Shown here one piece after another: positions 28,002 through 28,078 of a stretch of DNA of 64,000 nt (positions within the stretch are counted from its first letter, which is position 1; the number at the start of each line of letters is the position of its first letter). The notes below the pieces were generated by a model that saw only the letters and a list, made by a program, of their open reading frames with translations, did no database searches and was not told the origin of the DNA. The stretch is taken from the NCBI RefSeq assembly GCF_013122565.1, contig NZ_CP053258.1; one strand, written 5' to 3'. The stretch is from Escherichia coli. GTDB lineage: Bacteria > Pseudomonadota > Gammaproteobacteria > Enterobacterales > Enterobacteriaceae. The position numbers and the translations under genes are program-made.

Positions 28002-28078
28002 CGCGGGGTGGAGCAGCCTGGTAGCTCGTCGGGCTCATAACCCGAAGGTCGTCGGTTCAAATCCGGCCCCCGCAACCA
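28002..28078 (+). tRNA. metY: Initiator tRNA-fMet (anticodon CAT)
   Basis: 77 nt CGCGGGGTGGAGCAGCCTGGTAGCTCGTCGGGCTCATAACCCGAAGGTCGTCGGTTCAAATCCGGCCCCCGCAACCA; C1:A72 mismatch and three G:C pairs in anticodon stem typical of initiator. Confidence 0.95.

Follow-up and report, generated by a model that had tools for sequence, protein, structure and literature searches.

A metY gene encoding tRNAfMet1 with G46 in a non-K-12 Escherichia coli

The window analysed here, a 64,000-nucleotide stretch of Escherichia coli DNA (contig NZ_CP053258.1 of assembly GCF_013122565.1), carries an initiator tRNA gene with G at canonical tRNA position 46. This gene is almost certainly the metY orthologue of a non-K-12 E. 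coli and retains the ancestral G46 of tRNAfMet1, the A46 of K-12 metY being a derived allele private to K-12. Nothing in the data contradicts this explanation.

Two tRNA genes were identified in the window by ARAGORN, a tRNA-Leu (GAG) and a tRNA-Met (CAT), both on the plus strand, and Rfam agrees on both. The tRNA-Met gene is 77 nt long, with the anticodon cat at position 35, and matches the tRNA family RF00005 with 61.4 bits (E 7.9e-12). Its minimum-energy fold is a cloverleaf in which position 1 is unpaired versus position 72, the D loop has 9 nt, one of them an extra base (17a), and the variable loop consists of the five nucleotides AGGUC at linear positions 45-49. Because of the extra D-loop base and the location of the variable loop, linear base 47, at window position 28048, corresponds to canonical position 46. 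The initial annotation had read a G at this position within the string cccgaaggtcgtcgg, which is found at 28041-28055, and both the fold numbering and the alignment place a G at 28048. Alignment was used to verify the base, since a test against chance is beside the point for one nucleotide of a genuine gene.

The gene also displays the hallmarks of an initiator tRNA. Positions 1 and 72 do not form a Watson-Crick pair, C1 lying opposite A72; A11:U24 is present; and in the anticodon stem, TCGGG / CCCGA, G29-G31 are paired with C39-C41. Such a run of three G-C pairs at the base of the anticodon stem is a feature of initiator tRNAs (PMC3017606). With G46 in an otherwise E. coli tRNAfMet sequence, the gene is of the tRNAfMet1 type.

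The gene and its surroundings are listed below with the evidence for each feature; L009 denotes the related assembly GCA_018578885.1.

24133-24219, plus strand: leuU, tRNA-Leu, anticodon GAG, just downstream of secG as in K-12 (ARAGORN, Rfam)
26311-27654, minus strand: argG, upstream of metY and divergently transcribed (ORF list, K-12 annotation, Pfam on L009)
27880-27909, plus strand: promoter-like element, TTGACA, 18 nt, TATAAT, 12/12 consensus positions, a putative promoter (consensus scan)
27957-27986, plus strand: weaker promoter-like element just upstream of metY, TTTGCA, 18 nt, TAGAAT, 9/12 consensus positions (consensus scan)
28002-28078, plus strand: metY, initiator tRNA-fMet, anticodon CAT, tRNAfMet1-type (ARAGORN, Rfam RF00005, fold)
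28048, plus strand: canonical tRNA position 46, in the middle of the variable loop, where K-12 metY has A and the window G (alignment, fold)
28167-28267, plus strand: rimP leader, RF01770 (Rfam, 102 bits, E 2.9e-17)
28285-28737, plus strand: rimP, the first protein-coding gene after metY (ORF list, L009 gene-call coordinates mapped to the window, K-12 gene order)
28765-30252, plus strand: nusA (ORF list, Pfam NusA domains on the identical L009 gene, K-12 gene order)
30277-32949, plus strand: infB, encoding IF2 (ORF list, Pfam IF2 domains on the identical L009 gene, K-12 gene order)

In E. coli, metY heads an operon that runs on into rimP, nusA and infB. Comparison of the open reading frame list with the K-12 annotation showed that glmM, secG, leuU, yhbX, argG, metY, rimP, nusA and infB occur in the window in the same order as in K-12. 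The presence of argG upstream identifies the locus as metY as opposed to metZWV, so that the gene is the metY orthologue on the grounds of gene order, and the flanks confirm this assignment. The elements upstream of metY have the K-12 sequence from 27900 on, which covers the whole of the 27957-27986 site. Two terminator-like hairpins, at 28200-28223 and 28248-28260, were found inside the rimP leader.

In order to compare position 46 between strains, the window was aligned with the initiator tRNA genes of K-12 and E. coli B. Between 27900 and 28200 the window and K-12 MG1655 agree at 300 of 301 positions, and the sole mismatch is at 28048, where K-12 has A and the window G. The two genes share locus and operon, their promoter region, flanks and rimP leader are identical within these 301 nt, and they are a single base apart. 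The initial annotation had taken K-12 metY to specify the minor tRNAfMet2 with A46 and had named a G in K-12 metY as the finding that would overturn its reading; the MG1655 gene has A, in agreement with the literature. Its further statement that metZWV carry G46 was borne out by all three K-12 genes. The alignment it had proposed, with metY and metZ of K-12, gives the G/A difference from metY at 28048 and identity to metZ. The 77 nt of the window gene, G46 included, are identical to those of tRNAfMet1 as encoded by K-12 metZ, metW and metV and by all four E. coli B initiator genes; among the window gene and the four K-12 genes, only K-12 metY has A. The window gene and the K-12 tRNAfMet1 genes therefore have the same sequence at different loci, metY and metZWV respectively. 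E. coli B metY was likewise said to carry G, which we read directly in REL606, whose tRNA is identical to that of the window, and BL21(DE3) is among the genomes matched by a probe for G46 at metY (see below). REL606 has T for C in the 3' flank of metY, where the window has C.

These observations agree with what has been published on the two isoacceptors. In K strains, metZWV give rise to tRNAfMet1 with m7G46, and metY to tRNAfMet2 with A46 (PMC3017606, PMC8887418, PMC7949028). In E. coli B, all four initiator genes encode tRNAfMet1, according to the statement in PMC3017606 that cites Mandal and RajBhandary 1992, and through the same statement the difference between K-12 and B at metY position 46 can be followed in citations since 1992. 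A 2026 preprint (10.64898/2026.04.16.719103) reports that among six E. coli strains K-12 alone departs from G46 at metY; it also describes an A17 variant of metW in Nissle 1917.

We then determined how the two alleles are distributed among 5,426 complete E. coli genomes. A standard search with the 301-nt region resolves identity too coarsely for counting alleles, every genome scoring at least 99%, and was replaced by allele-specific probes that exploit the exact 28-base word of megablast. For A46 the probe was a 55-mer, with the A in the middle, that is unable to seed on the G allele. The G probe was a 111-mer with G46 in which decoy mismatches let only a word spanning position 46 seed, and its E-value limit of 1e-30 requires passing matches to extend into the metY flank, which makes it specific for locus as well as allele. 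A46 was matched in 365 of the 5,426 genomes, at one chromosomal place each, and is thus absent from about 93% of them, and G46 at metY was matched in 5,057, in backgrounds that include O157:H7, W, Nissle 1917 and O111. The two counts add up to 5,422, compared with 5,420-5,425 genomes holding the locus; they rest on the 28-base word rule of megablast, and the check on them is this internal consistency. In a search for sequences matching the initiator tRNA itself, the number of places per E. coli genome ranged from 1 to 8 (median 4; two in strain 118UI), from which it follows that the copy number of initiator tRNA genes varies among E. coli.

Nearly all of 60 sampled A46 carriers are named derivatives of K-12, among them EMG2, MG1655, DH10B, MC4100, HB101, C600, XL1-Blue and Keio strains, and a few have field sources. 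Three of the field-labelled carriers were compared with K-12 over 40 kb: SF10 (duck) has five differences, and SY3626C1 (chicken meat) and EC06 (human gut) have none. With 0-5 differences over this distance, these three belong to the K-12 lineage. Conversely, TA8571 has G46 at metY although its identity to K-12 over 40 kb reaches 99.83%, and the accessions of its YhbX, ArgG, RimP, NusA and InfB proteins are those of K-12. Beyond E. coli, we scanned species representatives with the 3' half of the tRNA and a metY-type flank, allowing either purine at position 46. All of at least 120 metY-type loci from other species, among the matches listed, have G46; they come from many Enterobacterales and a few other gamma-proteobacteria, Escherichia whittamii included, and representatives of Salmonella, Shigella and E. 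coli are absent from them.

Since A46 carriers are few and K-12-like, a close relative of K-12 such as TA8571 has G, and the loci of other species have G, the sequence comparison indicates that the majority of genomes keep the ancestral base, G46, and that A46 is derived and confined to the K-12 lineage. The tRNAfMet2 isoacceptor, often called a feature of E. coli, is thus very probably a private mutation of that lineage.

Three other accounts of the G in the window were considered. If the gene were a metZWV-type copy, G46 would be expected even in K-12, and its 77 nt are those of K-12 metZ, metW and metV. Its flanks, however, match metY of both K-12 and REL606 and differ from metZ, its neighbours are argG on one side and the rimP leader, rimP, nusA and infB on the other, and the window holds a single tRNA-Met gene and no tandem of three. 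Gene order refutes this identity, whose probability we regard as negligible. Hardly more credible is a K-12-derived strain in which metY reverted to G or was gene-converted by a metZWV copy. Conversion is mechanistically possible, given that G46 is all that separates K-12 metZ, metW and metV from K-12 metY, and the flanks around metY in the 301-nt region are identical to those of K-12. Yet O157:H7, Nissle 1917, ATCC 11775 and many further genomes match this 301-nt region at 100%, and G is universal outside K-12. Moreover, the first 49 kb of the window are just 98.84% identical to K-12, with 569 mismatches, genes for an MBL-fold hydrolase and a LysR regulator replace yraHIJK, and the aga cluster is intact. 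Divergence on this scale, seen throughout the window, refutes a K-12 origin of the strain.

The remaining account, that G46 positively marks a particular lineage such as E. coli B, is just as improbable as a reverted or converted K-12 gene. It draws on the G46 of REL606 and BL21(DE3) and on the contrast between B and K-12 in the literature (PMC3017606), but an allele found in the great majority of genomes and in many backgrounds cannot single out one of them, and the window is merely 98.64-98.73% identical to REL606; the allele distribution refutes a B-type marker. We therefore keep to the reading of the gene as a metY orthologue with the ancestral base. The initial annotation had offered G46 as a strain-lineage marker in support of a non-K-12 background. 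The background is indeed non-K-12, but since G46 is ancestral and near-universal, the site excludes K-12, is otherwise uninformative on lineage, and places the strain nowhere. As a marker it is one-directional. It is also redundant here: with 569 other mismatches to K-12 in 49 kb and a different set of genes, the non-K-12 inference would stand without the metY base, a single one among several hundred differences.

The genomic background of the window was characterized further. Over 40 kb it is 98.72% identical to K-12, 98.64% to REL606, 98.69% to O157:H7 and 97.98% to Nissle 1917, which are ordinary distances between E. coli phylogroups. A position outside E. coli proper was ruled out, the identity to K-12 being close to that between O157:H7 and K-12 (98.81%). 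Neither A46 at metY nor near-identity to MG1655, which would characterize the K-12 lineage, was found. Near-identity to REL606, which would characterize E. coli B, is lacking too, at about 98.7% over 48-50 kb, though G46 is shared. Among the 5,426 complete RefSeq E. coli genomes, none exceeds 99.2-99.3% identity over 1-40 kb or 98.3% over 40-64 kb. Exact-protein look-ups returned few near relatives, L009 (99.78%) and GCA_052983875.1 (99.7%), and exact matches to the YhbX and DacB proteins of the window occur in only two contigs each. A Logan contig from SRR11451224 matches the window at 100% over 11.5 kb. The window appears to come from an E. coli lineage that has been sampled sparsely.

Several features of the window other than metY deserve mention. 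In the comparison with L009, 46 of the 47 differences are concentrated in 14752-22277, where dacB alone accounts for 19, and 24825-36303 shows none; the cluster of differences looks like a recombination patch. For positions 1-16000, the median number of matching places in an E. coli genome is 39, and some places are on plasmids, which points to a short dispersed repeat within this stretch; the stretch is collinear with K-12 and hence contains no insertion relative to it. At 53924-55906, a gene for an MBL-fold hydrolase (318 aa, minus strand) lies next to a divergent gene for a LysR-type regulator (a 325-aa open reading frame; 314 aa in related assemblies). The pair occupies about 2.5 kb where K-12 has the 5.5 kb yraHIJK fimbrial operon, and other E. 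coli assemblies commonly share this layout and encode an identical hydrolase. The aga (N-acetylgalactosamine) cluster at 61648-63964 includes a full-length agaA-like amidohydrolase gene (377 aa) and PTS IIA and IID genes; in K-12 this cluster has agaW and agaA pseudogenes flanking a deletion.

On these data, the gene is almost certainly the single-copy initiator tRNA gene at the head of the metY-rimP-nusA-infB operon of a non-K-12 E. coli. If expressed, it would yield tRNAfMet1 with G46, the same product as that of metZ, metW and metV. An A at position 46, as in K-12 metY, cannot become m7G. The G46 in the variable loop would presumably be methylated to m7G46 in this strain by TrmB (YggH) (PMC7949028, PMC8887418), YggH/TrmB being the m7G46 methyltransferase (PMC7949028). 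By analogy with E. coli B, the source strain is predicted to make only one initiator tRNA species; it is no more than a prediction, as the window does not include the metZWV genes of the strain and their sequences are presumed.

The significance of G46 in the window is small, and the difference between K-12 and B at this base, known for decades, makes it nothing new in kind. What the counts of 365 A and 5,057 G, together with the G of other species, add is scale and a direction of change. In practice, metY position 46 offers a rapid test of K-12 identity or contamination, with no bearing on lineage placement. The distribution suggests that the possession of two initiator isoacceptors is peculiar to K-12. 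The preprint 10.64898/2026.04.16.719103 refers, through its reference 51, to a possible fitness role for the A46 isoform. If A46 is private to K-12, it is the window that represents the wild type, and whatever adaptive role is proposed for two initiator species would concern one laboratory lineage only.
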